Virus record (IMG/VR): IMGVR_UViG_3300019755_000002
Span: 14,717-78,716 of that record
Length of the DNA: 64,000 bases
From: a virus
Direction: 5' to 3' (one strand)
The first letter of the stretch is position 1. Each line of letters begins with the position of its first letter. A program made the translations under genes and the position numbers. Below, piece after piece: positions 1,334-60,996 of this stretch. Under the pieces are notes generated by a model. That model ran no database searches and was not told where the DNA came from. It saw nothing but the letters and a program-made list of their open reading frames with translations.

Positions 1334-1388
1334 ACTTGCTCTAGCTACACGCTAGGGCATTAATTAAACTAAAACTAGGATTGATGAT

Positions 1389-8693: not shown

Positions 8694-8850
8694 ACTAACC
8701 AAGGTCAGGATTACAAGTCCTGACCTTGGGTGATAATTTACCCCTAAGCGACAACGTTTAGGGGTGTATTAACACCCTCACAATTTGGATTGACGATACT
8801 AACCAGATTGAGAGTTAAATCTTAATCAATTAATCGAAAAGGTATACCCC

Positions 8851-10841: not shown

Positions 10842-13673
10842 ATGTTAGAACTTTTTAACGAACAAACGGGTATTACCGAAGTCCTAGTTGATGCCCGTAA
10901 CTTTAACAACATAATTCCACAATTAATCACGCAAATTCAACAATCGACATCACCTTATGTCGGGTTTGATATTGAAACAGAAGATAGTGGTCGTCATGCG
11001 GGACTTAACAAGTTCATGGCAATGAAGAAAGGCGACCAAAAGTATAAGAAAGCCAAAAAGCTCGTCTTTGATTTAAATAGAACAGTAATTACGGGGTTTT
11101 CTATTTACTTAGACAACGACAGCCGAGATTACTACTTTAACATGGCTCATGCCGACGTTGAGAACCGATTAGAATGGCAAACGGTGTTACCTTTACTTGG
11201 AACCATTAAAGCGACAAAAACGTGGGTGATACATAATGCCGCGTTTGAACTTGCTCAGTGCAATGGAACGTGGAAATTTGACCTAGGCCACAACTACATT
11301 TGTACCATGCAACTCTGTGTTAGTGCCTACAACTCAGACGAGTATGACATTCAGAAGTTTCACGAAGCGGGTCTTGGTGGTATTGCTAAGTTAATCCCCG
11401 AAATTACGAAAACTTTTGCGGGTTATGAGCCTAGACAACGTATGACAACACAACAAAACGAGTTGTTACAACGTTGTGTGCCAAAGCAATCAGCACCAGA
11501 GCATAGTTATAACGGCTGGGTAAGAGAGCTTAGCTATGGCTATGGTCTGAAAAAAGCCGTTAAATCTTGGTTTGGGTATGAACAGCAAGAATTTGAAACG
11601 GTTCTTCAAGGACGTGCTCACATGGGCTTGTTGACGGGTGAAGAAGTTTTACACTACGGCGCTGACGATGCCTACTGGTGTTTGAAGCTTATGCACCGTG
11701 TTATTGCTTTTATGCAAGAGACTAACCCGCAAGTTATCAACACGTTTTTTGAACAAGAAAACCCAATGCCACGCATATGGGCAGATAATTGGTTACGCGG
11801 AATACGTCTTAACTATGAGCAATTAGAGTATCGTAGAACCGAGGCAAGAAACAACTTTGCCAACATCCTACGTGACTTTATTAAAGCTTTACAGCAAATA
11901 GCTTTCGCGGATAAACCCGCAGAACGTTTAGTCCAAAAGCAAATGAAATGGTACATAGGTAAAGATGAAGACCAACCAAAGTACTTAGAATACCGTGAAC
12001 GCTATCAAGCTATTGCCTCAGTAGATGCCGATAGCCTAAGCGACTATGACGTTTGCCAGTTGGTTTCAGGTTCCGTTCCAGAAAACTGGGCAACGGAACG
12101 AGGTGAAAAGGTAAACAAGAACAAAGGCAACATTACCCATTACATGATGGCTCGAGTACTGTTCCATGATTTGTTAGATTTACCGCTTATCTACGTAAAA
12201 GGTGCTATTCAATCGGGAGGTGATGCCCGAGGTAAGCTTAAAGAAAAAATAGAGTTATTAAGTACTGAGCCTAAAGAGTGGCTAAAAGAATGGGGGCGAT
12301 ACAAATGTCATACCGAACTTAGTGACCAAGAGCGTCAAGCATTGGCTGAGAAGAAGGTAGCGGAATACCCACGACAAGCGGCGGAAACGATTTTAAATTG
12401 TTTAGGTAAGATGGCTACCGTTGAACAGGTAATGAAGCTTTACCTTAATTCTTATTTAATGTTAGTAGACCCTGAAACTAAGCGTATTTATCCCACAATT
12501 AGTTCTAGGTTAAATACCCGCCGTATGGGGTGTGAAAACCCTAACGGTATGCAACTAAGTAAACGCGGGGAAACAACTTATGTTAGGGGTTTCTTTTTAC
12601 CCGAACGTGATGATCACCTAATTGTTTCAGTGGATTGGTCTCAGGTAGAACTGGTCCTAATTGGTGAAGACTCTAAAGACCCAACCTTTGGTAAAGCTTA
12701 CGGTCAAATACCTTATGATGATTTACATTTAGATGCCGCAGCGTCAGCAGTACGAGTGTTTCATCCTGACTTTACCAACTTACATCTAAAAGAGTTACCT
12801 AAAATGGTAGAAGCGGATATCACTTCGTTCAGCATTGAGTTTCCACAGGTGTTAATGAATCCAGTAAAAAAAGAAACAATGACACCTAAAGCGGCACATA
12901 AATTTTGGCGCGGTACTGCAGGTAAGGTTTCAAACTTTGGTTATTGGTATTCAGGGTCGTTGATGACGGTGCAACCTGGTCTAGGTTGGACGGATAAGCA
13001 AATGTGGGACGCTACGGATAATTATCGTAAACAATTTCCCGTTGCTGAAGCATGGAGAATACGAACCCAAAACGAAGCCAAGATGTATGGGTGTGTTTAC
13101 ATTCTTGATGGTCATCGTAGAACACGTTACGAGTCAACCCAATACTGGTATAACGCTATGGTAGCCAAGTTTGCCAGCTATGGTAATGCGGCAGTTACGG
13201 CCTTTGGTCAAAGAGTTTGTTCCACCATTCAACGTAGAGCAGCAAATCAAGCCGTTAATGCCAAAATCCAAGGTGGTTGTGCCACATTAGCTAAGCGTTC
13301 AATTCTACGCTTAGTACGTTGTATCAAATCCGAAGGTTGGGATGCCGTGTTTTACATGCCCATACACGATGAATTAGTTTTCTCGGTTCGTTGGGATCAA
13401 GCCATAGCATTTAGCAAGCGCGTTAAAGAAATTATGTGTCATCATCCTGATTTGGTTCAATGGCTGAAACTTGATGGCACTGTTTCCGTGGGTAAAACGC
13501 TAGAGCCTTATGACAAGGACAAAGCACCCCTAGGTCAAATTGAACTTGACGAAGCACCACTATTACCCGAGTACTTGCCAAAAGATACCGAAGGCAAAGC
13601 CCTAGACGATAATCAGCGCATGAACGTGGTTAATTATCTTATGGGGTTAACACCTATGACGGACGCGGCCTAA
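10842..13673 (+). CDS. polA: DNA polymerase, family A, with 3'-5' exonuclease
   Basis: Exo 'DIET', 'HNAAFE', 'YGADD'; motif A 'DWSQVEL', motif B 'KVSNFGYWY', motif C 'IHDE'. Confidence 0.92.
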   Translation: MLELFNEQTGITEVLVDARNFNNIIPQLITQIQQSTSPYVGFDIETEDSGRHAGLNKFMAMKKGDQKYKKAKKLVFDLNRTVITGFSIYLDNDSRDYYFNMAHADVENRLEWQTVLPLLGTIKATKTWVIHNAAFELAQCNGTWKFDLGHNYICTMQLCVSAYNSDEYDIQKFHEAGLGGIAKLIPEITKTFAGYEPRQRMTTQQNELLQRCVPKQSAPEHSYNGWVRELSYGYGLKKAVKSWFGYEQQEFETVLQGRAHMGLLTGEEVLHYGADDAYWCLKLMHRVIAFMQETNPQVINTFFEQENPMPRIWADNWLRGIRLNYEQLEYRRTEARNNFANILRDFIKALQQIAFADKPAERLVQKQMKWYIGKDEDQPKYLEYRERYQAIASVDADSLSDYDVCQLVSGSVPENWATERGEKVNKNKGNITHYMMARVLFHDLLDLPLIYVKGAIQSGGDARGKLKEKIELLSTEPKEWLKEWGRYKCHTELSDQERQALAEKKVAEYPRQAAETILNCLGKMATVEQVMKLYLNSYLMLVDPETKRIYPTISSRLNTRRMGCENPNGMQLSKRGETTYVRGFFLPERDDHLIVSVDWSQVELVLIGEDSKDPTFGKAYGQIPYDDLHLDAAASAVRVFHPDFTNLHLKELPKMVEADITSFSIEFPQVLMNPVKKETMTPKAAHKFWRGTAGKVSNFGYWYSGSLMTVQPGLGWTDKQMWDATDNYRKQFPVAEAWRIRTQNEAKMYGCVYILDGHRRTRYESTQYWYNAMVAKFASYGNAAVTAFGQRVCSTIQRRAANQAVNAKIQGGCATLAKRSILRLVRCIKSEGWDAVFYMPIHDELVFSVRWDQAIAFSKRVKEIMCHHPDLVQWLKLDGTVSVGKTLEPYDKDKAPLGQIELDEAPLLPEYLPKDTEGKALDDNQRMNVVNYLMGLTPMTDAA

Positions 13674-14005
13674 TGGTATACACCCTACGACAGCCCTCAA
13701 AGAAAAACTTAAGAAGCAACGTCTACAAGGAGTTACGTCGAGTTTACCAAGTTCCTGCTTATACGGGTGCAAAAGTCCGCTACTTAGGAAGACCTGCCAC
13801 CATTATCGCTGCGGCTGCAGAAAACTATCTTATTTTAAGGTTGGAAGATAGACAGGACAAAACGGAAATAAGAGCGGGAGTTCGTCAAGTAGAATTTCTT
13901 GAACCAATGAACAAGAAAAAACGACCACGAACTAAGCTACAACAGAAATTAGAATCTCAACCTAATAAGGCTAAAAATGACGCCTTTGAAGATGGTTGGT
14001 GGTAG
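13673..14005 (+). CDS. hypothetical protein
   Basis: TAATG coupling to the polymerase stop. Confidence 0.65.
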   Translation: MVYTLRQPSKKNLRSNVYKELRRVYQVPAYTGAKVRYLGRPATIIAAAAENYLILRLEDRQDKTEIRAGVRQVEFLEPMNKKKRPRTKLQQKLESQPNKAKNDAFEDGWW

Positions 14006-15440: not shown

Positions 15441-15494
15441 AGAGTAATATCAACACTTAAAAATTAAACGTTTATAAAAATTAGGATTGACGAT

Positions 15495-16079
15495 ATGTTA
15501 ACAATATCACCAACACTTTATACGAAACTTTATCAAGACATCGTAGATTTTCGTAATGCTTTTCAACTACCTGTAAACGCGCCTGAGAAATTTTCTCTTG
15601 CCGACGACGAACTACACAACAAATTATATTTAGAAGAAACTATTGAGCTTTCAGAAGCCGACACACAAGTTAGTCGTGTTGACGCTCTGGTTGATTCTGC
15701 ATACGTGCTTATGGGGCGTTTAGTCCATTTAGGGTATCGTAATTTAACCGTTGCTAGATCGTCAGAACCAGCTAGAGTCTTTGCATTAGAAACCATCTGG
15801 AATGTTTGTCAAACCGCCTTTAAAGAAGACACTTTTGTTAAGTGTTGGGACAACATTCATGCCTCAAACCTTTCAAAAGTTTGTAAAACGGAGCAAGAGC
15901 GTGATGATACTCTGCGTAAGTATAAGAAACTTAAAATACCCACCCTTGTTGAAGAAGTTAAGGGACTATATGTCGTAAAAGTAGCTAAAGACGCCACGAT
16001 TGACGACAAACATTATCCAAAAGGAAAGGTATTAAAGAATGCACATTACAAGGCAGCAGACCTTGTTCCACTAGTTTAA
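15495..16079 (+). CDS. MazG-like nucleotide pyrophosphohydrolase
   Basis: 'EETIEL...DALVDSAYVLMG', 'IHASNLSK'. Confidence 0.8.
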   Translation: MLTISPTLYTKLYQDIVDFRNAFQLPVNAPEKFSLADDELHNKLYLEETIELSEADTQVSRVDALVDSAYVLMGRLVHLGYRNLTVARSSEPARVFALETIWNVCQTAFKEDTFVKCWDNIHASNLSKVCKTEQERDDTLRKYKKLKIPTLVEEVKGLYVVKVAKDATIDDKHYPKGKVLKNAHYKAADLVPLV

Positions 16080-19594: not shown

Positions 19595-19664
19595 TAGTGG
19601 GCTAATAGCCCAAACGGACTAAAAACTGTTTGGGCTTCAACTCAAATACAGACAGATAGGATTG

Positions 19665-20153
19665 ATGATGCGTACTAAAATGACGCTCGGGGTTAGTCGT
19701 TCAAAAACAAACACGACGACAGAAACCAAGGCAATAAAACCAGAATTCTCCAAAGAAGATAAAGATGCTTATTACTGGCTAGGTCAGGTTATGGTTGAGT
19801 TGTATCGTCTCAAGTTTAGAATTAAATGGGATAAACCCCTTGCTAAGAACTTTTACAAAAAAGTACGTAAAGTTCTAAGCAAAGACTTTATTTCATCAAA
19901 GAATCTAAACGCCGCTATTAAACATCACGTTAAATCACCTAAATATTTATTGATGTTAAGACCCGGCGTCTTTAGACATGACCTAAAAGGGAAACCCACA
20001 GTGGCGGTCACTGAATTTGAGTCTAAGCATGCCTTAACAGAGTTATACGAGCATCATGGCGCTTTTATGCGCGACCGTAGAAAGCGGAGAAATAAACAAC
20101 CTATTACCTCCACAAGGAAAAATCATGTTACGAAACACAGGCAAACCCAGTGA
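19665..20153 (+). CDS. ProQ/FinO-domain RNA-binding protein
   Basis: 'KPLAKNF...SSKNLNAAIKHHVKSPKYL...GVFRHDLKGKP..AVTEFESKHA' matches the FinO-domain pattern KPL...YL...G..R.DL.G....V....HA. Confidence 0.75.
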   Translation: MMRTKMTLGVSRSKTNTTTETKAIKPEFSKEDKDAYYWLGQVMVELYRLKFRIKWDKPLAKNFYKKVRKVLSKDFISSKNLNAAIKHHVKSPKYLLMLRPGVFRHDLKGKPTVAVTEFESKHALTELYEHHGAFMRDRRKRRNKQPITSTRKNHVTKHRQTQ

Positions 20154-20556: not shown

Positions 20557-20624
20557 TTGGTTGGCTCCAAAGGGAGCCGATTTTATTCAGGTAGATACAA
20601 TTTGGATTGACGATAGGATCACAC

Positions 20625-26412: not shown

Positions 26413-26480
26413 ATGCAGACAAGGAACGACAACAACGTCCTTGTCCTACAAATTAACTGATTGACGATATTGAGGTAACG

Positions 26481-26819: not shown

Positions 26820-26834
26820 CTTTGGATTGACGAT

Positions 26835-27086
26835 ATGAACAACCAGAACACTCTTGGGGTAAACACCAACATGTCCCCACTTCAACAAAGCAAACATCAA
26901 AAATATTGGAGTACAAAACAAGTATGTGAACGATTTGGATATATATCGTCACGCACACTCTCTAGATGGGTCGAGTCCAGAGGATTCCCGCCGTCGGTTA
27001 CACCTGAAGGAGAGGCGAATTTATACTCCATTGAAGCCATCCTCTTGTGGGAAGAAAACTATTTCACCCAACCAGATATAGCCTAA
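26835..27086 (+). CDS. AlpA/excisionase-type HTH protein
   Basis: 'STKQVCERFGYISSRTLSRWVESRGFPP...YSIEAILLWE'. Confidence 0.75.
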   Translation: MNNQNTLGVNTNMSPLQQSKHQKYWSTKQVCERFGYISSRTLSRWVESRGFPPSVTPEGEANLYSIEAILLWEENYFTQPDIA

Positions 27087-28340: not shown

Positions 28341-28353
28341 TAGGATTGACGAT

Positions 28354-28950
28354 ATGAGCCATCAACAGATAAATCAAAGCTCAGGTAATGTTGAATACTA
28401 CACCTCTGAAGAACTACTTGTCTTAGTACGAGAAGTGTTGGGAACAATAGACCTCGACCCAGCAAGCTGCTCGTTAGCGAATGAAGTGGTAAAGGCAAAA
28501 AATATTTTTACCAAAGAGAACGACGGCCTAAGTCACTCTTGGTTTGGTAAAGTGTTTATGAACCACCCCTTCCATAAGGGAGAAAAACCGTGTAAGAAAA
28601 ACTGCAAAAAGAAAATTTGCCAACCGAGCAACGACCCTAAAAAACCTACGCGTGGTCATTGTATCGATTATGAAATCCCTGGCAATGCCATCTGGACGAA
28701 TAAACTTGCCGATGAATACTATAAGGGCAATATTGAAGAGGCTATTTGTATAACGTTCTCATCAATGTCTGAAGATTGGATGTGGCCGCTACTTCAAGAA
28801 GTGCAATGCTTCCCGCGCGGTAGAGTACATTATCGAAAGCCTGACGGTACAGTTGACCGACAAGCAACGAAAGGTAGTGTGTTAACTTACTTCGGTAAGA
28901 ATCCTGAGAAGTTCGAGGCCGTTTTCAGTGCTATAGGCAAAGTAAAATAA
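28354..28950 (+). CDS. phage DNA N6-adenine methyltransferase-like protein
   Basis: 'EYYT', 'IDLDPAS', 'DGL..SW.GKVFMNHPF' (NPPF variant). Confidence 0.8.
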   Translation: MSHQQINQSSGNVEYYTSEELLVLVREVLGTIDLDPASCSLANEVVKAKNIFTKENDGLSHSWFGKVFMNHPFHKGEKPCKKNCKKKICQPSNDPKKPTRGHCIDYEIPGNAIWTNKLADEYYKGNIEEAICITFSSMSEDWMWPLLQEVQCFPRGRVHYRKPDGTVDRQATKGSVLTYFGKNPEKFEAVFSAIGKVK

Positions 28951-28951
28951 G

Positions 28952-30259
28952 CTACCAAACTACACCACCATCCTTATCCACTGTTCTAGTGTCAGTAGAA
29001 GAATTGTCTAATTTACGCTCAGGCAGTGGTGAATTTAACAGTTCTTCTATACGTTCACCCCACTTATTATACGCTCGTGCTTGATCTGGAAGATAGGAGT
29101 TTAAATCATAAACATCTTCAACACCTGGGGTAGAGTGCCCCAACATTATCTCGGCAACGTGTGGTAACGTTATCTTTTCGCCCTTAATCTCTTTAGTCCA
29201 GTTGGTTCTAGCGGTTCTACGCAAGTCATGTATCGTCCAGTGAACCATCTTAACATTGAAGTTTTTAAGAATGTACGCATTGATGTTCTTGGGTATGTTT
29301 AAGTGTGACTGACCTTTAGCTTTATCACTAAACTTATCTGGCTTAGTAATGTTCGTAAAAACAAATTCCTTAGACCCACTTAGGGACAGGGCTTGCACGA
29401 TCAAAGGTTTAGAAAACTTAGTAATAGGACGGACAATGGGTAAATCCATAAATTCCCCTGTCTTATGTTCTTCAGGTAATAACGTCCACAGACCAGTATT
29501 AAAATCAAATTGCTTTGGATGTGAATTCGTCAACTCCCCTATTCGACAACCATAGTATAAACATAACAATACCTGTATCTTTGTCTTTGCTGCAGAACGT
29601 CCCAACGTAAGCGCCTTGAGAATATAAATTAACTCATCATCGGACAAAACTCTTTTTCTTTTCTTACGAACAATTTTCAAATCACGTCTAGCACTAAGAT
29701 GTGCTAACGGGTTTTCGTTAACGACACGTTTACTTATACCTCGAAAGTACACTTGTTTTAAAAAGGACAACATCACCCCCGTCATGTACGGTCTAAGCGG
29801 CATGTGTTTTTCAAAAAAATCCATCCAACGAGCGGTGCTTATTTGTGAAGCTGGATAGCCCCCCATTTCAGAAAGTACGTGCTGTTTCGTGGCCTTAACA
29901 TTTCGTGAAGCTTTTTTCTTAACGCCTTCCTGTTCGTACCAATCGAGAAATAAATCACTAAAGGTTGAATATCTACCCTCCCCAAATAAATTTTTTTCTT
30001 GGGTTATTTTTGGATGAACACCCTCAGCGATACCCTCTTTAATTTTGGCGTTTAACTTTCGGGCTTTACTAAGAGAAAGGTCGGGGTAAGTCCCTAAGTC
30101 TAGTCTAGAAGGTTTGCCCCCTTTTGGGTATCTATACCTTAGTTGAAAAACTATTTTCCCTTTTGCCGAGACTCGAACACTTAAGCCATTGCCGTCGCTC
30201 TTTTCATATGTGCGTCCTTTTTTATCAGGTGATTTTAACCAAGTGTCAGTTAAGGCCAC
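28952..30259 (-). CDS. int: tyrosine integrase with N-terminal arm-binding domain
   Basis: 'SDGNGLSVRVS..GK..F.LRYR....LGTYPDLSL..AR'; catalytic 'GCRIGE', 'HDLRRT', 'LGH', 'VY'. Confidence 0.93.
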   Translation of the reverse strand: MALTDTWLKSPDKKGRTYEKSDGNGLSVRVSAKGKIVFQLRYRYPKGGKPSRLDLGTYPDLSLSKARKLNAKIKEGIAEGVHPKITQEKNLFGEGRYSTFSDLFLDWYEQEGVKKKASRNVKATKQHVLSEMGGYPASQISTARWMDFFEKHMPLRPYMTGVMLSFLKQVYFRGISKRVVNENPLAHLSARRDLKIVRKKRKRVLSDDELIYILKALTLGRSAAKTKIQVLLCLYYGCRIGELTNSHPKQFDFNTGLWTLLPEEHKTGEFMDLPIVRPITKFSKPLIVQALSLSGSKEFVFTNITKPDKFSDKAKGQSHLNIPKNINAYILKNFNVKMVHWTIHDLRRTARTNWTKEIKGEKITLPHVAEIMLGHSTPGVEDVYDLNSYLPDQARAYNKWGERIEELLNSPLPERKLDNSSTDTRTVDKDGGVVW

Positions 30260-38687: not shown

Positions 38688-41600
38688 CTAAAATCTATAT
38701 GTACAAGCTATTTGTTTAACTTGTTCAGGGTAATCAAAAATAACGTCTTCGTGGCTTTCTGCCACTGTGTAGTTATAAACCAAATCATCATCTTGCTGCT
38801 GGGCTTTACCCGCCATAGCGCTAGAGCAAAGATTGTCGCCATCGAGGATATTCCCACCTAGACCACAAACATTAATTAAGCCTTCACCAACGGAATTTAT
38901 CGTTACAAGTTCGTCGTCCATGTCGAATTCTTCGGACAACTGTTCCCAAGTCATTCCTAGAGGTAGCTGGTCATAACTATTAAGATATGTGGCTAGAGTT
39001 AAAGCCTCAGAGTAAACGCCATAAACGTTCTTTTCTTTAAACGTTTCAGTTTTTTTAACTTCGGATATTGAGTTGCTTATATCTGACTTAACCACCACTC
39101 TAGCCCTACTAACTAAATCTCCTACTTCGATAATATGGGGGGTTTTCACTATACATATGTGTCGCCCCGTAAAAGGAGATACACCACCAGGACTAAAAAT
39201 ACCCCGCCAGTTATTAGCGGCATTACGGTTAGAAATATAAAGCCCCCAATCACTATAACCTCGAGCATCGAAATCGGCAGGAACGTAACTTGCTGGGGGT
39301 TGACTGATGATCCCCCCCTTTTCAGGTATGTAGCATCGGGAATAGCCCGAACTATCAGAAAATATGAAGGCCGTAGACCCTTGGTTATTTTCAGTTACAC
39401 TAAAAGAGCCACCATTCCCCCCGCGCATTTTAATAGACGTAGTCTCAATGTCGCACTTACCTGTTGCGGGATTAAAGTCTAATTTTGCATTTCCAGAAGA
39501 ACATAACAGTCTACCCGTAAAGGTCGCATCTACAGCCAAAACGATGTCCGCTGCTAATTTACTGGTTGTAACCGAGTTTGCGGCTAAGTGTACGGCTTCA
39601 ATAGCTAGAGCCTTAATCTTCCCCGCTGTAATAGCGTAGGCTGCAATCTTATCCGCTGTGATTGCACCAGCGGCTATTTTACTCGCTAACACCGAGTTTG
39701 CAGCGAGTTTATCCGCAACTACCGCCCCTGCAGCTATTTTATCCGCAATCACAGCGTTGGCTGAAATTTTGTCCGCAGTCACAGCATTTGCCGTTATATG
39801 GTTGGCATAGATTTGATTGGCCGCAATCTTATCGGCTAAAACGGAGTTAGCCATCAACTTAGGTGTCGAAATAGAATTATTCGAGATGTTCGTTGTCGTT
39901 ATGGGGAACAAACCATTTAAATTACCAAGCTCTTGCCAAAGTGTTCCTAATTGTTGACTACGAGTAACACCCTCATCTACGATTGCTTGCTTATTTATCA
40001 AACCTTCTTGGGTAATTAATGCCTGACCAGCAGCTAATCTTATATCATTTACCATGGCGTCCCACGCCCTTGGTATCGTGTCTAACTCAGCTTGTATTTC
40101 TTCAATCAACTCCCCCTCGCCAGATAAAGGACTTTCATTAATATAAACCAGTACCCCACCTTGTTCAGGGAAGAAAGCTGTTGTTCCAAATGGGCCTATA
40201 GACCTCGCCCACAATAAATACTGGCTGTCAGCGTCTAGATTAAAATAATCCACTAGGGTTGGTGCTGTGCGAATTAATTCGGCATCAACAATGTTAGGAA
40301 GTGGTTCACCCTCAATAACCTTGGCTATCCACCACTCGACCAGCACATCTTCTATCACCAGTTCATCAAATAATGGTGATGCTGAAAGTGATTGGCGAAC
40401 AACGTTTGTTTCAATATCCACAATCAAAGGAACACCGTCGGCCGTTATGTTCTCTACACGTAGAACCGAGTATTCCCCTTGTTGGTCTATTAATTGAAAC
40501 TCTAAACGTAGGTCATTACTAGCAGCACCTAATTTCTTAAGATGCTCTAATAAGGTATAAGTTATCTCACCGTCCGAGCTTGTCCCCTCTAATAACAAGG
40601 TTTCAGTTTTATTATCTATCAGAGAAAAACGCACACCCGAAATAAGACCTGAGCTTAATAAAGGCATCTTGCTTCTGGGCGCATCAACATCAAAAAGATA
40701 TTCTGCCTCAATAAGACACGTTAAATCGCCTTGATTAAAACTAAAACTTAAGGAAGTAAAAAGCTGGTCTTCAGAGTATTCCCCTAAAACGAAAGATAAT
40801 TCATTAATCGTCCATTTAAAAAGGTCGGAATAAAACTTCTTATCGTTATAAACCATAACCACGGTAAAGCCGTAGTCTCCAACCGTTACGTTAGGTACTT
40901 CAATAAGCGTAGCATTGGTCGTTAACCTTAAACCTGTATCAACACCATCTTTGAAAACTTGTAGCTCATAGTAAGCCCCAAGATAGACTTTTGAGGGCGA
41001 ATCCCATGTTAACCATAAATTAAGTTGCCTCTGATCTTTCACATTAACGTATTCTTGCTTAAGCACCGTAATGTTCTGGGGTGATTCCCCTGTTTTGGGG
41101 TTGTCAAAATTAAAGCTTGGTTTATTGGTTAACAGTAAGTTATCCGCTGCATCGTGTTTGTTTCTATTTACTTCAACAGCCGTTAGACTCACAGCTTTAC
41201 TTTCGGGGTCAACTTCCGAAATGGAAACAATTCTAAATGGTTTAGATATCCCTGGAGCACTATTTTCACGTTGAATAGAAAACGCGGGATATTGTGGTAA
41301 GTCCAGTGTTGGGGCTACACTTAGCGTTAGCTCCTTAAAAAAACCTACCCTATCAACAGTAAAAGAGATTGTTTCAATAGCGTCAGATTGCGTTTGCACC
41401 AAGAAATAAAACGTGCCTGACTCTTCTAAATAAATAGGGTCTCTAAACGTGACCTTTTTATTTTCTAACGCTAAAATACGCCCTGATATACCCCAATCTT
41501 GATCAGGGTCAACAATGTTTATAATGTCGAAAAGTTCAAAACGAATCCCAGCATTAGGCAACATGAAAGTTACAGACATGGTTTCTGTTTGAGACGAGAT

Positions 41601-43478
41601 TAGTCGAAAATACATCTTCCGCCATGCTTCTTGAGCATAGATACAACCAACACTCTCGTATTCCAAAACATTCGCACCATGTTTATCTTGTGCATTTTGG
41701 TCAACTAATGGTCCTAAGTATTGACGTTCCCAATCCAATTCAGAATCTATATATGAAGAAACTATTTCATTCGGTCGCTCAGTTAAATCCGTATGGCTGT
41801 AAGTAAAGACCACGTTAGGACTCGTTTCGATACACTGCTCAGGGGTAATGGTGGCTACTGCGGCTGTGTTCCTGTCAGCAACAATAACTAACTGACCATG
41901 TTCATCATCATAGGCCTGAGCATTGGCCGAGCCTAAAATGTAGTTGATAAGATCTAACCCATTTTGCTTTTCAGTGATCACACCATTAAAAGTAAAACGC
42001 GCATGTTCCCCACCATCACCGTCTGACAACATTTCATCCGCATGTTTCGCTAACGTGTAGACGCGATATCTGTCTATCGTAACTCGTGGGTTTATACGGT
42101 AATAACCTATTCTAGTATTTGTTACTAGTTCATAGGCGATCCAAAAAGGGTTATCCGTCCATCTTTTTTCAGTTTTAAATTCCCCATCCCAAACAATGCT
42201 CTCATCATATGTTTTGGTCTCTGGGTTATAGTTGGTTGGTACTGAACAAAGTAAACCTTTCCATACCCCAGAAATATTTGGTAGGTTTTGAATTTCACTA
42301 TTAAGTAGAGCGGCCACATGCAACATTGCCGTCCCTGCATGATATTCTGCCTCAGCTTCCGAACCAGCAATACCCACGTTTTCTGTTTCATAACTTAACC
42401 AAGAGATTCGTTGAATAAATTCTTCATCGTTCTCAACGCCAACTAACGTAACCGAAAGTTCAACGCCTTTTTCACTATTTGGTACCGTAAAAGTGTAGCC
42501 TCGAACAAAGCCACCAACAGTTGTTTTTCCCTCGACAGTTATTTTGTCCGTTAATAGTGTTGGATTAGAAACTAAGTCATCTTCTTCAATAACGAGACGC
42601 CCCCACCCATCGACCACAATCCATTTAACCAACAAATCCATGCCTAATTCTTCTCTGGAATGCCTTTCAGCCACTTTTTCGGCATAAAACTGGGCAAACT
42701 CTGCCTGAGTTTTACTTATCGTAGCCCCCCATTCATCGCGTTCAAGTTCAAGTTGAAACCACACCTGAGAATAGAAATATTTTTCGTATTTATTCGTCTC
42801 GATATTTAAAATCCAAGCACCGACAAGCGTACCTTGCTGACCTGCTTCGTAATAGAGTCCGAGATAATAGATATTAACGCGCCGAGGAATGGCTCCATTC
42901 TCTGGAGACATACCACCAGAAGATTCATCGGAAATAACCCGCTGCTTTATCGCCGTCCAATCTTCACCAATATAACGCCACTTTATTGCTAATTCCGCAC
43001 TTGACGATTTATACCCCTCATCAGTTGCGCGATATAATTGCTGTACAGCTAAGCGAATTTCAACTCGGTTATATTGTCCTGCAATAGCTGCGGGTATCGT
43101 CCTAGTAAGTGTAACGTCGTCTACCAGTGTAGCATTAACAACGTGAGGAGAAGTGTTTCCGCCAAGTAGGTAAGCAATAGGACTTTGACCGTAAAGATTG
43201 TCTTCTAAATCCGTCAACACTTTTCCAGATTCAGACCGTAGAATAAACTCGGCTTCAGGAAATTGAAGTTCACCATTAACGTCTCGTATCGCAGTGTCAT
43301 CCACAAAAAGATTCGCTAATTTTTCTTCTTCCGTGTCACCGTCTAGGCCATAGATTGGGCCTTCACAAATACCAAGAAGCATTTCAAAGCCGTCAGTAGA
43401 CCATAACGAATCTCTATCGTTACCAGCGTCATTTCCGCCACCACTGCCCGAGGCAAATGTGGTCTTCATCTTCGTCAT
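38688..43478 (-). CDS. central tail fibre / tip protein J (host specificity)
   Basis: 'GICEGPIYGL', 'VPTNYNP', 'WDG.FK...WTDNP.W', FnIII-like segment, 'ADKIAAN' repeats, C-terminal chaperone-like domain. Confidence 0.88.
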   Translation of the reverse strand: MTKMKTTFASGSGGGNDAGNDRDSLWSTDGFEMLLGICEGPIYGLDGDTEEEKLANLFVDDTAIRDVNGELQFPEAEFILRSESGKVLTDLEDNLYGQSPIAYLLGGNTSPHVVNATLVDDVTLTRTIPAAIAGQYNRVEIRLAVQQLYRATDEGYKSSSAELAIKWRYIGEDWTAIKQRVISDESSGGMSPENGAIPRRVNIYYLGLYYEAGQQGTLVGAWILNIETNKYEKYFYSQVWFQLELERDEWGATISKTQAEFAQFYAEKVAERHSREELGMDLLVKWIVVDGWGRLVIEEDDLVSNPTLLTDKITVEGKTTVGGFVRGYTFTVPNSEKGVELSVTLVGVENDEEFIQRISWLSYETENVGIAGSEAEAEYHAGTAMLHVAALLNSEIQNLPNISGVWKGLLCSVPTNYNPETKTYDESIVWDGEFKTEKRWTDNPFWIAYELVTNTRIGYYRINPRVTIDRYRVYTLAKHADEMLSDGDGGEHARFTFNGVITEKQNGLDLINYILGSANAQAYDDEHGQLVIVADRNTAAVATITPEQCIETSPNVVFTYSHTDLTERPNEIVSSYIDSELDWERQYLGPLVDQNAQDKHGANVLEYESVGCIYAQEAWRKMYFRLISSQTETMSVTFMLPNAGIRFELFDIINIVDPDQDWGISGRILALENKKVTFRDPIYLEESGTFYFLVQTQSDAIETISFTVDRVGFFKELTLSVAPTLDLPQYPAFSIQRENSAPGISKPFRIVSISEVDPESKAVSLTAVEVNRNKHDAADNLLLTNKPSFNFDNPKTGESPQNITVLKQEYVNVKDQRQLNLWLTWDSPSKVYLGAYYELQVFKDGVDTGLRLTTNATLIEVPNVTVGDYGFTVVMVYNDKKFYSDLFKWTINELSFVLGEYSEDQLFTSLSFSFNQGDLTCLIEAEYLFDVDAPRSKMPLLSSGLISGVRFSLIDNKTETLLLEGTSSDGEITYTLLEHLKKLGAASNDLRLEFQLIDQQGEYSVLRVENITADGVPLIVDIETNVVRQSLSASPLFDELVIEDVLVEWWIAKVIEGEPLPNIVDAELIRTAPTLVDYFNLDADSQYLLWARSIGPFGTTAFFPEQGGVLVYINESPLSGEGELIEEIQAELDTIPRAWDAMVNDIRLAAGQALITQEGLINKQAIVDEGVTRSQQLGTLWQELGNLNGLFPITTTNISNNSISTPKLMANSVLADKIAANQIYANHITANAVTADKISANAVIADKIAAGAVVADKLAANSVLASKIAAGAITADKIAAYAITAGKIKALAIEAVHLAANSVTTSKLAADIVLAVDATFTGRLLCSSGNAKLDFNPATGKCDIETTSIKMRGGNGGSFSVTENNQGSTAFIFSDSSGYSRCYIPEKGGIISQPPASYVPADFDARGYSDWGLYISNRNAANNWRGIFSPGGVSPFTGRHICIVKTPHIIEVGDLVSRARVVVKSDISNSISEVKKTETFKEKNVYGVYSEALTLATYLNSYDQLPLGMTWEQLSEEFDMDDELVTINSVGEGLINVCGLGGNILDGDNLCSSAMAGKAQQQDDDLVYNYTVAESHEDVIFDYPEQVKQIACTYRF

Positions 43479-43518
43479 ATCGTCAATCATTCCAAATTTT
43501 AGTTACTTAGTTGTTTAA

Positions 43519-44509: not shown

Positions 44510-44987
44510 AACCTCCTAGTTTCTTTTTAGCCTCGTAAGGTAACTGGGATAAAATTACGGGGTTAACACTAGATAAGGTTCGTTCCATTTCCGTATGCCT
44601 TAAGACTTTTTTAACGCGCATTCTCCACTTTGGAGAATACTCTTCAATAAAACTACGTTGACCTTCCAAATGATGAAGGATTTTTCCTTGACCAACGTAG
44701 GTTGCAACGTGATTTGGGTGTTGCGGTCTACCCAAGCTAAGCAATAAAACATCACCTAGTCTAACATTTCTAGGATTATCACCAACATCAACAAAACCCT
44801 GATTTTGAAATTCAGAAACAAAAAAGTTTAAATCTGGGTGAAGATACCAAAGATGTGGGCGAGCAAGGTCTATTAGCGTAACATCCAAATACGACTGAAA
44901 TAATTGCTGTACTAGGGTGTAACAATCTTGCCACCCCTCAACATACTCTTTACCTTGTAATGACAAAGCGGCATCAAAAAGAATCAT
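44496..44987 (-). CDS. NlpC/P60 tail protein (gpK C-half)
   Basis: 'DCYTLV', 'NHVATYVG.GKILHH'. Confidence 0.85.
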   Translation of the reverse strand: MILFDAALSLQGKEYVEGWQDCYTLVQQLFQSYLDVTLIDLARPHLWYLHPDLNFFVSEFQNQGFVDVGDNPRNVRLGDVLLLSLGRPQHPNHVATYVGQGKILHHLEGQRSFIEEYSPKWRMRVKKVLRHTEMERTLSSVNPVILSQLPYEAKKKLGGFGNA

Positions 44988-45469
44988 AAGCGCACCTGAT
45001 TAAATTCAGGCTGTGTGAAACGTCTAGGCGGCAACATAAAATTATTACCATCCGACAGGTAGTTTAATTGGCAACTAATCATTTGACGATTAACTTCAAC
45101 AATACGACTAACGTAAAATTGATTCGTTAAGCTTTCATTACTGTCAAGATTCTCTGGATGGACTAAATACTGGGTTACTCTCGCATTATCCAAGTAACCT
45201 TTTTGGATGTAATAACTGTAAACACCTTCTGGGTTCGGCAATATTAATCGTGGACGTGTTTTTTCACCCCCGCTTTTATCACCTAAACCACTTAGATTAA
45301 AAGCGACTTTACTCCAAGTAAGACCATTCCATTCTAGGGTTTGTGACAAGCAAAAGTGCTGAACAACGGGGCCGTCGTCAGTTTCAATGTATATTTTTAG
45401 AAGTTCATAGGGCGCAGAGCTATTCAAGGAATGCTTCTCTTGCTCCATTCCCGAAGGCAAAACTTTCAT
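44984..45469 (-). CDS. minor tail protein L-like
   Basis: Synteny M-L-K-I-J; 'RPRL..PN', 'LPPRRF'. Confidence 0.7.
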   Translation of the reverse strand: MKVLPSGMEQEKHSLNSSAPYELLKIYIETDDGPVVQHFCLSQTLEWNGLTWSKVAFNLSGLGDKSGGEKTRPRLILPNPEGVYSYYIQKGYLDNARVTQYLVHPENLDSNESLTNQFYVSRIVEVNRQMISCQLNYLSDGNNFMLPPRRFTQPEFNQVRL

Positions 45470-45512
45470 ATCGTCAATCCAGATTGTCGTTGTTCTTAAA
45501 TTTGACTATAGC

Positions 45513-45551
45513 AAAAAAAATAAAACCTCGGAACATAAAAATGCTCCGAGG
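45513..45551 (-). terminator. intrinsic terminator
   Basis: CCTCGGAGCAT-TTTT-ATGTTCCGAGG followed by TTTTATTTTTTTT. Confidence 0.85.
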
Positions 45552-45590
45552 CCAACTATTGGATTGACGATATGTGCCTTACGACGCATA
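45513..45590 (-). ncRNA. predicted small RNA antisense to the shared RBS motif of phage genes
   Basis: 5' GUAA-tetraloop hairpin, seed CAUAUCGUCAAUCCAA (45574-45559), intrinsic terminator, candidate promoter upstream. Confidence 0.7.
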
Positions 45591-45594
45591 CCAC

Positions 45595-45624
45595 AAGATA
45601 ACATTACCCGTAAACAAGCGACAA
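45595..45624 (-). promoter_or_regulatory. candidate sigma70 promoter of the sRNA
   Basis: TTGTCG-18 nt-TATCTT with an extended TG. Confidence 0.5.
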
Positions 45625-45645
45625 GTCCAGACATTTTAAGATAAT

Positions 45646-46032
45646 TTATCTCGGCTGTTCTTTAAATTCCAAAGTAAACCCTTGACTAACACCATTACCC
45701 TCCTTCAATAACTTTGGTGCTTCAAATGGTGCTGAAAACATCACCACAAGCACACCATGTAAGTAGTGTTCGTACTCAAAAGCTTTGTGTGTTTCATGTT
45801 CTTGGTAAAACCTCTCCAACGCCAAAAGATTTATCTCTGGATTTATTATCTCACTCACCAAGCCATCCTCATCAAGGAAGTATTTCATGGCGTTAAAACT
45901 CAACTTAAAAGTTCTCGCTGGGGGCGAATTGGGCTTAATCGTATGAGTCCAACCACCACCAAGGTCAACTTGGCTGTTTCTCTTTGGGTATGAATGTTGA
46001 ACTTCATGGTACGGGAAATTAAACACCTCCAC
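45646..46032 (-). CDS. minor tail protein M-like / distal tail protein
   Basis: Follows the tape measure gene; 'LERFYQEHETHKAFEY', 'FKEQP'. Confidence 0.7.
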   Translation of the reverse strand: MEVFNFPYHEVQHSYPKRNSQVDLGGGWTHTIKPNSPPARTFKLSFNAMKYFLDEDGLVSEIINPEINLLALERFYQEHETHKAFEYEHYLHGVLVVMFSAPFEAPKLLKEGNGVSQGFTLEFKEQPR

Positions 46033-59547: not shown

Positions 59548-60996
59548 TTATTTCGTCGTGTTTGATTTTACTTGTTTATCCTTAGCTGAGGACACGCTAC
59601 GACCTACAGGGTCATCATTTGGTGAAACACTTTCAGCATCTACAGCTAGTGCCGTGTTGTTCATAAACTGCGTTCCAGATAACTCTGGTGAGGTATCAGG
59701 TCTTAATCTACCATACATGGCAATGTGGTACTCGTCATCCGAAATAATTCCCTCACTTAAATCTTGTCTTAATCTGCTGGCTTTTAAATTTTTCTGGGCT
59801 TCCATTTCTAACTCAGAACGCAAATCAACCTCAGGGTAAACAAACTCAACCCTACTTTGTGACCCCTGAAACCTTATTGCTTGAGTCAACATATTACTAA
59901 TAATCTCACCAATAGGTTTGTTAATACTCCCAGCCATTTTGCCAAAGAGTTGAGCTTCAACTGTTCCCGTGTTCACACCACTTTCACCACGACCTAAAAC
60001 CGTTGCCATAGTCTTGAGCCCAGCTTGATTTTGAGCATTAAGCGTATCAATCACTTGCTTAATATCGACACCCATTGCGGGATTTTTATCGTTAAGAATA
60101 CCCATTTTTACCGAATCATAATGAACTAGTGGTTGGTCTGCTCTCATCGATTGTAGTTGCCCAACCACTTCATTTCGCCTTGCGCGCAGGTATTTTCTAA
60201 ATTCATTTGGGTCGGTTTTAACTGCAACAGGAGCATTTTTAGCAATAACTTCCTCAAGCACTTCCGCCGTCATTCTTGGATATCCCGTTATTTGCATAAT
60301 CCGATACAAATCATTAATAACTTGTTGACGTGCCGCCATAGTATTAATACCCGCTAAAAAGGGACTATGCCCATAGGCTTCCATAGGCGATTTTCTATAC
60401 CACTGAATAAACAACGTTGGTATATCCATCTTTTTATCTTCACCGTTTTGCGTTTGCCATGGCGTAATTACCCCCGACTCCTTTTCTTGAAACGTGAACG
60501 AGGCAATATCAGGAACCACAATTCTATCTAAAAGCAAGGCGTCATTATAAATAGCTTCACCAGCGATACCACCTCGAGCTAAAAGCATATAGCGCATATC
60601 CTCAGCAATAGCACGTAGGGTTCTTTTTTGGCTAAATCCTGTTGAGTAGTCGCTTCTCTGTGTTAGCATCTCAATAATCTGATTGACAAGTTTACCTCCT
60701 TCACGGTCAACATTCCCGTCTATATCTTTTACTAAAATAATCGGGGTAACATCCGCCGTGGTTAGATATGAACTCAAAGCCGCCGAGGCATCAGGGTCAG
60801 ATTTAATTAACGTTAAAATAATTTCTCTACTGTTTTGTTCTTGTCTAGTACTTAAAATATCTGTTAAATGTTCTTTGAAGTTTGGTAAGGGTAGAACCTC
60901 TGTCTTATTTGAAACGTCAAAGGTGCCTGTATGCGCCTGTGCTTTTTTCTTACCAACTTTTGGTAGAACAATTGCTAATTTTTGTAGAATACTCAT
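59548..60996 (-). CDS. portal protein
   Basis: 482 aa, between the terminase and the protease. Confidence 0.75.
   Translation of the reverse strand: MSILQKLAIVLPKVGKKKAQAHTGTFDVSNKTEVLPLPNFKEHLTDILSTRQEQNSREIILTLIKSDPDASAALSSYLTTADVTPIILVKDIDGNVDREGGKLVNQIIEMLTQRSDYSTGFSQKRTLRAIAEDMRYMLLARGGIAGEAIYNDALLLDRIVVPDIASFTFQEKESGVITPWQTQNGEDKKMDIPTLFIQWYRKSPMEAYGHSPFLAGINTMAARQQVINDLYRIMQITGYPRMTAEVLEEVIAKNAPVAVKTDPNEFRKYLRARRNEVVGQLQSMRADQPLVHYDSVKMGILNDKNPAMGVDIKQVIDTLNAQNQAGLKTMATVLGRGESGVNTGTVEAQLFGKMAGSINKPIGEIISNMLTQAIRFQGSQSRVEFVYPEVDLRSELEMEAQKNLKASRLRQDLSEGIISDDEYHIAMYGRLRPDTSPELSGTQFMNNTALAVDAESVSPNDDPVGRSVSSAKDKQVKSNTTK

Follow-up and report, generated by a model that had tools for sequence, protein, structure and literature searches.

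A conserved cassette with the one inverted copy of a phage start tag, and its candidate small RNA for shared control of translation

Genes and features around the gap

The window, as the analysed stretch of 64,000 nucleotides is called here, covers bases 14717-78716 of a complete IMG/VR virus record of 78,716 bp with direct terminal repeats and a GC content of about 40%. Up to about 29 kb the window holds non-structural genes on the plus strand, and beyond this point structural genes on the minus strand. The latter run in the order of a 1905-aa tape measure, a 128-aa gene, a gap of 176 bp, a 161-aa minor tail protein, K-like and I-like genes, and a 1600-aa J-like fibre. The first-pass annotation of this DNA named the two genes beside the gap tail genes M and L. 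Both letters are assigned by position only: the L-like protein matches a minor tail protein family, and the M-like gene belongs to phrog_34212 (function unknown). The features of the locus are as follows, in the direction of transcription.

45646..46032, minus strand: 128-aa gene after the tape measure, "M" by position, phrog_34212
45470-45645: 176-bp gap between the M-like and L-like genes
45595..45629, minus strand: promoter-like region with two overlapping registers, read from the sequence
45513..45594, minus strand: candidate small RNA of about 77-82 nt, with its predicted start at 45589-45594 and its 3' end where the terminator T-run ends
45569..45592, minus strand: 5' hairpin SL1 with a GNRA loop, GUAA, from the fold
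45559..45574, minus strand: inverted tag CAUAUCGUCAAUCCAA, the exact reverse complement of the start tag plus AUG
45554..45568, minus strand: single-stranded linker GUCAAUCCAAUAGUU between the two hairpins, the predicted seed, with the anti-Shine-Dalgarno UCC
45511..45553, minus strand: intrinsic terminator with a 13-bp stem (45553-45524), 6 GC pairs and a U-run
45467..45482, minus strand: start tag plus AUG of the L-like gene, a possible cis partner of the inverted tag
44984..45469, minus strand: 161-aa protein with a minor tail protein family match, "L" by position

The start tag is a private sequence motif, or start-associated sequence (SAS), that precedes many genes of this virus. Its 11-mer core GGATTGACGAT stands 0-3 nt upstream of the ATG at about 21 starts in the window and at about 25-28 in the whole 78.7-kb virus, and the longer 16-mer TTGGATTGACGATATG has 16 matches in the window at three or fewer mismatches, compared with 0.54 expected. 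The first-pass count of about 21 tagged genes is thereby borne out. The tag consists of GGA, a fixed 8-nt spacer and AUG; since the GGA lies 8 nt before the AUG in both versions of the tag described below, it doubles as the ribosome binding site (RBS). Early and structural genes carry it alike, as the following examples illustrate.

15482..15497, plus strand: motif at the start of a 194-aa MazG/PRA-PH-like gene
26822..26837, plus strand: exact 16-mer at the start of a Xis-like HTH protein (83 aa)
28341..28356, plus strand: motif at the start of a 198-aa ORF (28354-28950)
43476..43491, minus strand: motif at the start of the J-like gene for the central tail fibre (1600 aa)

The integrase (28952-30259, minus strand, assigned by Pfam) starts from a canonical AGGAG-GTG and lacks the tag, as annotated. 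Good copies of the tag are all co-oriented with their gene. The sole exception is the copy at 45559-45574 on the plus strand, within the 176-bp gap, in agreement with the earlier claim that this is the only copy antisense to local transcription.

Three further copies in the window lie off start codons. Those at 20602-20617 and 26458-26468 are followed 10-12 nt downstream by a second Shine-Dalgarno-like sequence and an ATG, and the copy at 8785-8800 has no start codon nearby. At some of the plus-strand genes, the tag is closely preceded by a second conserved element, AATTAAACTAAAAYT (window 1353-1377 and 2153-2170; G000:1795-1810, 12106-12121 and 13957-13972 of this virus), of which the related phage KB12-38 has about 12 copies. 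Pairing of the tag with the 3' end of 16S rRNA was also considered; by eye, and against an E. coli-type 3' end, no convincing extension past the GGA was seen.

Read along the minus strand, the gap contains the elements that the first-pass annotation had listed, namely a promoter, a GUAA-loop hairpin, the inverted tag and a strong intrinsic terminator. The hairpin folds as described with one C/A mismatch, the stretch CAUAUCGUCAAUCCAA is the exact complement of the Shine-Dalgarno region plus AUG, and the terminator matches its description, T-run included. The promoter fared less well. In its first register, TTGTCG (45624-45619)-18-TATCTT (45600-45595), the hexamers and the extended TG are present, but the score of 8/12 falls below the scan threshold of 9/12. 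The second register, TGGACT (45629-45624)-17-TAATGT (45606-45601), is the positional homologue of the KB12-38 site. Because the window promoter is this weak, the candidate RNA is perhaps just the 3' end of a late mRNA.

The candidate RNA folds with a z score of -5.8. The 3' arm of SL1 covers the anti-AUG part (CAUAUC) of the inverted tag, and this occlusion of part of the anti-tag is a point against the pairing model presented below. The linker is unpaired in the centroid structure and partly paired, although mostly unpaired, in the minimum-energy fold. As in small RNAs of the FinO/ProQ class, a Rho-independent terminator hairpin with a 3' pyrimidine tail is present in all three phages that carry the cassette, and the seed is complementary to the RBS, exactly so over 14-16 nt, and accessible in the folds. 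No Rfam family reached its gathering score for the candidate RNA in the window, and a search of 45440-45700 at E <= 10 returned hairpin noise alone; the covariance models of the C4 antisense RNA of P1/P7 and of the other curated Rfam phage sRNAs did not match. On the minus strand an ORF of 42 aa (45506-45634) spans the RNA together with its terminator; it is not a gene, since it is conserved in neither KB12-38 nor the second relative with a cassette, G001.

Conservation of the cassette and co-variation of tag and anti-tag

Two relatives carry both the tag and the cassette. The cultured Pseudoalteromonas phage KB12-38 (MF098558) shares the gene order, with 55% protein identity in both flanking genes, and G001 (IMGVR_UViG_3300025712_000005) is a complete genome of 83 kb with 50% identity, of which two further records are identical copies. 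Overall, the protein identities of the two to the window range from 50 to 56%. In KB12-38 the gap measures 167 bp and reads, on the gene-sense strand, TTGACT-17-TACTAT, a hairpin, CAUAUUGUCAAUCC and a terminator. The 203-bp gap of G001 has TTGACG-16-TAATAT and CAUCGUCAAUUUCC, with a hairpin between them whose sequence is unrelated, followed by another terminator, rich in GC. The promoter-like site lies at the homologous position in both and scores 9/12 in each, the window site being the weakest of the three.

When the window is compared with KB12-38, hairpin, inverted tag and terminator down to the U-run form a block whose conservation far exceeds that of the coding DNA on either side. The SL1 helix is kept in KB12-38 despite 8 substitutions (e.g., G-C to G-U and G-U to A-U), and the upper terminator stem shows compensatory changes. 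Each of the three folded RNAs has the anti-AUG end of its anti-tag within or right beside the 5' hairpin, and the anti-Shine-Dalgarno part (UCAAUCC or UCAAUUUCC) sits in the linker before the terminator; the equivalent linkers of KB12-38 and G001 are single-stranded.

The occurrence of the cassette elsewhere was surveyed through several searches. The M-like and L-like genes overlap or abut in JWF, Seuss, EAb13 and G003 and lie 44 bp apart in Lumi, so that the cassette gap is absent from all five relatives in which both genes could be placed. Like a moron, the cassette is thus an insert between genes that are adjacent in relatives and is furnished with a promoter-like site and a terminator, but it contains no protein-coding gene, and its ORFs are not conserved. 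Eight further relatives were examined for an over-represented start motif and none was found; they are Lumi, Seuss, JWF, EAb13 and G003-G006, and the genomes of some reach only 69-90% completeness. The scan for relatives with the L-like protein found none. Alignment scans with the M-like protein matched JWF- and Seuss-type phages, or G001 and its copies, and nothing else, and the scan with the ProQ alignment matched G001 only. DNA patterns of the tag, the cassette or the extended tag gave single chance matches or nothing, and a search with the large terminase subunit (TerL) yielded four more distant genomes without tag and without ProQ. Two more relatives are known from proteins, P0001 (92% identity, 77.6-kb contig) and P0002 (54% identity, 50-kb contig). 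Tag and cassette are known from only three independent lineages, and these form one clade.

In each of these phages the inverted copy can be set against the phage's own consensus (window, GGATTGACGATATG; KB12-38, GGATTGACAATATG; G001, GGAAATTGACGATG). The two are identical over 14 nt in the window and in G001, where the tag is a different one, (A)GGAAATTGACG-ATG, at about 35-45 starts and the single inverted copy equals that version. In KB12-38 the tag reads GGATTGAC and then mostly A; since its consensus was seeded with the inverted copy itself, independent support comes there from column 9 of copies anchored on GGATTGA, which by hand count holds about 23 A, 6-7 G and 3 T, as compared with G in 31/32 copies of the window. 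The inverted copies have A at this column in KB12-38 and G in the window, and the KB12-38 anti-tag hence follows the shift of the tag at its variable column. Co-variation of seed and RBS motif in related phages, which the first-pass annotation had proposed to look for, was in this way observed. Phages that keep the motif and lack an antisense copy, named there as contrary evidence, were not encountered; both tagged relatives carry the copy and the eight others have no tag.

Calculated duplex energies follow the same division. At dG <= -15 kcal/mol the G001 anti-tag pairs with 25 of its own start regions, 3 in the window and 2 in KB12-38, while the anti-tags of the window and KB12-38 reach 18-26 starts each in these two phages and 3 in G001. 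The predicted pairing would accordingly be lineage-specific, amounting to a switch of specificity. Tag variants at real starts include 32 wobble-compatible transitions versus 16 incompatible ones (13 versus 2 in KB12-38), a bias that is suggestive of RNA pairing at most, as it is confounded by the G positions that also form the Shine-Dalgarno core.

Outside its own locus, the RNA finds its longest complement in an 18-nt site that lacks a start codon, in the leader of the early operon (G000:6751-6880, L186:6751-6880, outside the window). The leader is divergent from an ORF of 160 aa whose match to a repressor family is weak. Two tag copies, one partial and one full, occur in this leader, neither with a start codon; the full one, AACTATTGGATTGACGAT, is the longest complement, and a GC hairpin and the first gene, itself tagged, come next. 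The arrangement recurs in KB12-38 at 41498-41570, and an AACTATT extension, which pairs with the linker, is found only at the early-leader sites of the window virus and KB12-38.

A phage ProQ/FinO protein and comparison with known systems

The non-structural part of the window also encodes a protein that might act on such an RNA.

19662..20153, plus strand: ProQ/FinO-domain protein (PF04352), candidate chaperone

The domain scores 41.6 bits in the window, 49.9 in KB12-38 and 48.5 in G001, against a cut-off of 27. Exactly those three phages that have tag and cassette encode it, and it was not found in any of the eight relatives without the tag (Lumi, Seuss, JWF, EAb13 and G003-G006, some 69-90% complete). 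Because the three lineages form one clade, this co-occurrence could reflect a single gain. A profile of the three phage proteins matches the solved structures of ProQ, RocC, FinO and NMB1681. Residues Y88, R98, S71 and S72 are invariant among them, and the Y and R align with the ProQ motif Y..L/R.DL. In RocC, the 3'-nucleotide pocket is formed by Tyr87 and Arg97 with a Ser N-cap, and FinO/ProQ-family proteins bind terminator hairpins and promote antisense pairing (PMC9674577). Phage-encoded members of the family are known, and a review assigns them no function. The gene lies in the replication module, with the tag GGATTGATGAT 10 nt upstream of its likely ATG at 19683. At the G001 ProQ/FinO start (L149:1568-1589), a tag-like GGAAATTGACGAGG is found just inside the coding sequence (ATGACGGAAATTGACGAGG), and the chaperone mRNA may itself be a target.

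Among known RNA regulators, RocR/RocC of Legionella pneumophila shows several likenesses. RocR is a trans-acting sRNA whose terminator hairpin is bound by a FinO-domain protein and which represses several mRNAs through a shared box at the RBS; the candidate RNA is predicted to act likewise, a FinO-domain gene co-occurs with it, and the Tyr/Arg pocket is conserved. Unlike RocR, which has few targets, the candidate is phage-encoded with 25-40 predicted targets, its box is the RBS itself and spans early and structural genes, and the two RNAs share no sequence homology. FinP/FinO/traJ of F-like plasmids and Inc/FopA/repZ of pCol1B9 likewise employ a stem-loop antisense RNA of about 80 nt over an RBS, aided by a FinO-domain protein from a mobile element, as predicted here. 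FinP and Inc are, however, cis-encoded with a single target, whereas the candidate lies far from its many targets. In phages, the C4 RNA of P1/P7 and the CI RNA of P4 pair with short repeats that include an RBS and thereby keep lytic functions off. The placement of the longest match in an early-operon leader beside a repressor-like gene recalls these systems, but C4 and CI have two or three targets in one operon, in contrast to the genome-wide set of RBSs and the absence of an Rfam match in the present case.

The tag itself has an analogue in the SAS of Cluster K mycobacteriophages, a private asymmetric motif that precedes the start codons of 11-19 genes in one orientation (Pope et al. 2011, PMC3203893). 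The tag is likewise asymmetric, close to many starts, uniform in orientation and extended past the Shine-Dalgarno core. The sequences (GGATTGACGAT here and GGGATAGGAGCCC in Cluster K) and the hosts are unrelated, and the likeness is one of analogy and not of homology. The Cluster K motif is moreover limited to non-structural genes (PMC3203893), whereas the tag is also found on structural genes. A subset of the Cluster K genes has an extended upstream element (PMC3203893), the "extended SAS" that the AATTAAACTAAAAYT element brings to mind. For Cluster K1 phages one reverse copy only, located away from gene starts, was reported (PMC3203893), and 16 forward copies and 1 reverse copy were confirmed in the genome of Mycobacterium phage Anaya. 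Between gp96 and gp97 of Anaya, 385 bp are non-coding; the reverse copy (59870-59882; L188:1071-1083) is placed there and oriented such that the sense transcript would carry the anti-SAS; a simple scan revealed no clear promoter or terminator. TM4 and Pixie were described with the motif and without a reverse copy (PMC3203893), from which it follows that start tags need no antisense partner. The function of the Cluster K motif was still called unknown in papers of 2024-25.

Interpretation and alternative readings

The best explanation of the locus, held with somewhat more confidence than doubt, is a trans-acting anti-RBS sRNA that represses the tagged genes. On the minus strand, co-directional with the tail genes, the gap would encode an RNA of about 80 nt that does not code for protein. 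Transcription could start at a sigma-70-like promoter of its own, the terminator could set the RNA free from late transcripts, or both routes could contribute. Behind a hairpin at its 5' end would follow an unpaired linker and then the Rho-independent terminator, and the linker together with the 3' arm of the hairpin would complement the private extended RBS tag of about 25 genes. Pairing with the tags would then hide Shine-Dalgarno sequence and start codon from ribosomes, and the tagged genes would be repressed together, with the FinO/ProQ-domain protein of the phage as a likely helper. As tag and mirror change together in relatives, one RNA probably controls the translation of all tagged genes. 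The sRNA interpretation of the first-pass annotation thus gains from the conserved cassette, the tracking of the tag by the anti-motif, the lineage-specific predicted pairing and the co-occurrence of ProQ/FinO, and loses from a cis fold onto the L-gene RBS that is also predicted in two of the three phages. Its further statement that the RNA silences the lytic programme goes beyond the data: both early and structural genes are tagged, the latter making lytic silencing an awkward description, and the ProQ/FinO gene belongs to the replication module. The role may be silencing in lysogeny or superinfection immunity, or alternatively timing or dosage within the lytic cycle.

The cis fold leads to a different account, in which the cassette is only an internal terminator with an anti-RBS in the late tail mRNA that folds onto the L-like RBS on read-through. 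Such a device, considered unlikely, would lower the expression of the tail-tip genes L to J relative to the upstream genes. It would fit the position of the cassette directly 5' of a tagged gene in all three phages, the minimum-energy read-through folds of the window and G001, in which the anti-tag pairs with the L-gene tag, and the space between terminator and L gene, which leaves no room for a conserved promoter (a candidate there in the window, TGCTATAGT, was discarded as it is not conserved in KB12-38). The minimum-energy fold of KB12-38, however, lacks the cis helix, and neither the promoter-like site directly upstream nor the co-occurrence of FinO is needed by a cis device. In KB12-38 and G001, the anti-tags match the genome-wide consensus and not the L-gene variants (GGATTGACTATG and GGAAACTGACGATG); that the L-gene tag is off consensus and the anti-tag on it in two of the three speaks against a role in cis alone. 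Since, in addition, the longest match is in the early leader and exceeds that of the L gene, action in trans is favoured on these predictions, and an effect in cis on the L gene is likely to be a side or added function.

A protein could also be the partner of the tag, either a translational repressor or activator similar to RegA of T4 or a DNA-binding repressor with sites like the L5 stoperators, the inverted copy then being an operator or decoy. The asymmetry of the tag, its orientation with transcription and its extension past the Shine-Dalgarno core would suit such a protein, and an inverted copy under the same constraint would likewise follow the consensus; for the Cluster K motif, Pope et al. 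left the choice between an RNA and a protein partner open (PMC3203893). Against this, the phasing of 0-3 nt to the start codon and the fixed 8-nt distance from GGA to AUG point to the RNA level, whereas stoperator-type sites (L5, Cluster A) act as DNA and would need no such phase. An inverted DNA copy, furthermore, puts the complement of the tag and not the tag itself into the sense transcript, and the promoter-hairpin-terminator frame, the compensatory stem changes and the FinO gene would be left without explanation. A protein site is consequently regarded as improbable. Even less credible, to the point of being nearly dismissed, is that the inverted copy serves as the RBS of a tiny plus-strand ORF or is a functionless relic of recombination. 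An ATG does follow it on the plus strand in all three phages, but the resulting ORFs of 9, 10 and 3 codons (window, KB12-38 and G001) were rejected as genes, their peptide is not conserved, and neither a conserved plus-strand promoter nor a terminator was found in the three phages. A relic, for its part, is at odds with conservation above that of the flanking coding DNA and with the tracking of the consensus.

Other coding and promoter candidates at the cassette were likewise set aside. A sense-strand leader peptide could start from the same ATG in the window and KB12-38, but it has no Shine-Dalgarno sequence and a frame shift separates the two; the predicted RNA of G001, by reading, contains no ATG, GTG or TTG, which also rules against a leader peptide. 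No conserved peptide was found in the cassette on either strand in the three phages. For a plus-strand promoter with the TTGAC of the tag as its -35 element, the -10 candidates lack the key T in all three.

Returning to the trans-acting RNA, a broader and rather doubtful extension is that cassette and FinO protein constitute an RNA-based, genome-wide translation switch whose specificity is set by the private tag, which would also explain the start-associated sequences of unrelated phages, including the single reverse copy in Cluster K1. Were specificity set in this way, lineages with GGATTGACGAT and those with GGAAATTGACG would be mutually non-immune. The known antisense RBS blockers of phages and plasmids each control one or a few messages; here, one private RBS, within the reach of a single RNA, seems to have been taken up by a third of the genes of a phage. 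A literature search found no published description of one RNA that mirrors the private start tag of a phage. If the proposal is true, phage-encoded FinO proteins would gain a function, the purpose of the SAS, a question of fifteen years' standing, would have a testable answer, and a compact viral means of switching many genes through translation alone would be described. KB12-38, which appears in the literature in comparative papers only, and its Pseudoalteromonas host are recorded as isolates, and ordinary bench tests may therefore be possible, provided that both are obtainable.

Finally, the relatives contain private palindromes of their own. G004 (L175-L177) and G005 (L178-L181), which are more distant relatives by TerL, have 9-14 copies of the palindrome AAGGTTGACGTCAACCTT, often within longer inverted repeats; the idea that these represent a fused tag and anti-tag was rejected, as the copies are not start-associated. 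About 11 copies of the palindrome GGGGCACATGCCCC occur in G001, often immediately 5' of tags (L150-L154, e.g., G001:35436-35470), and about 9 copies of GGGGTAACGTTACCCC in KB12-38 (L125, L126). The palindromes of these last two phages may be terminators or operators.
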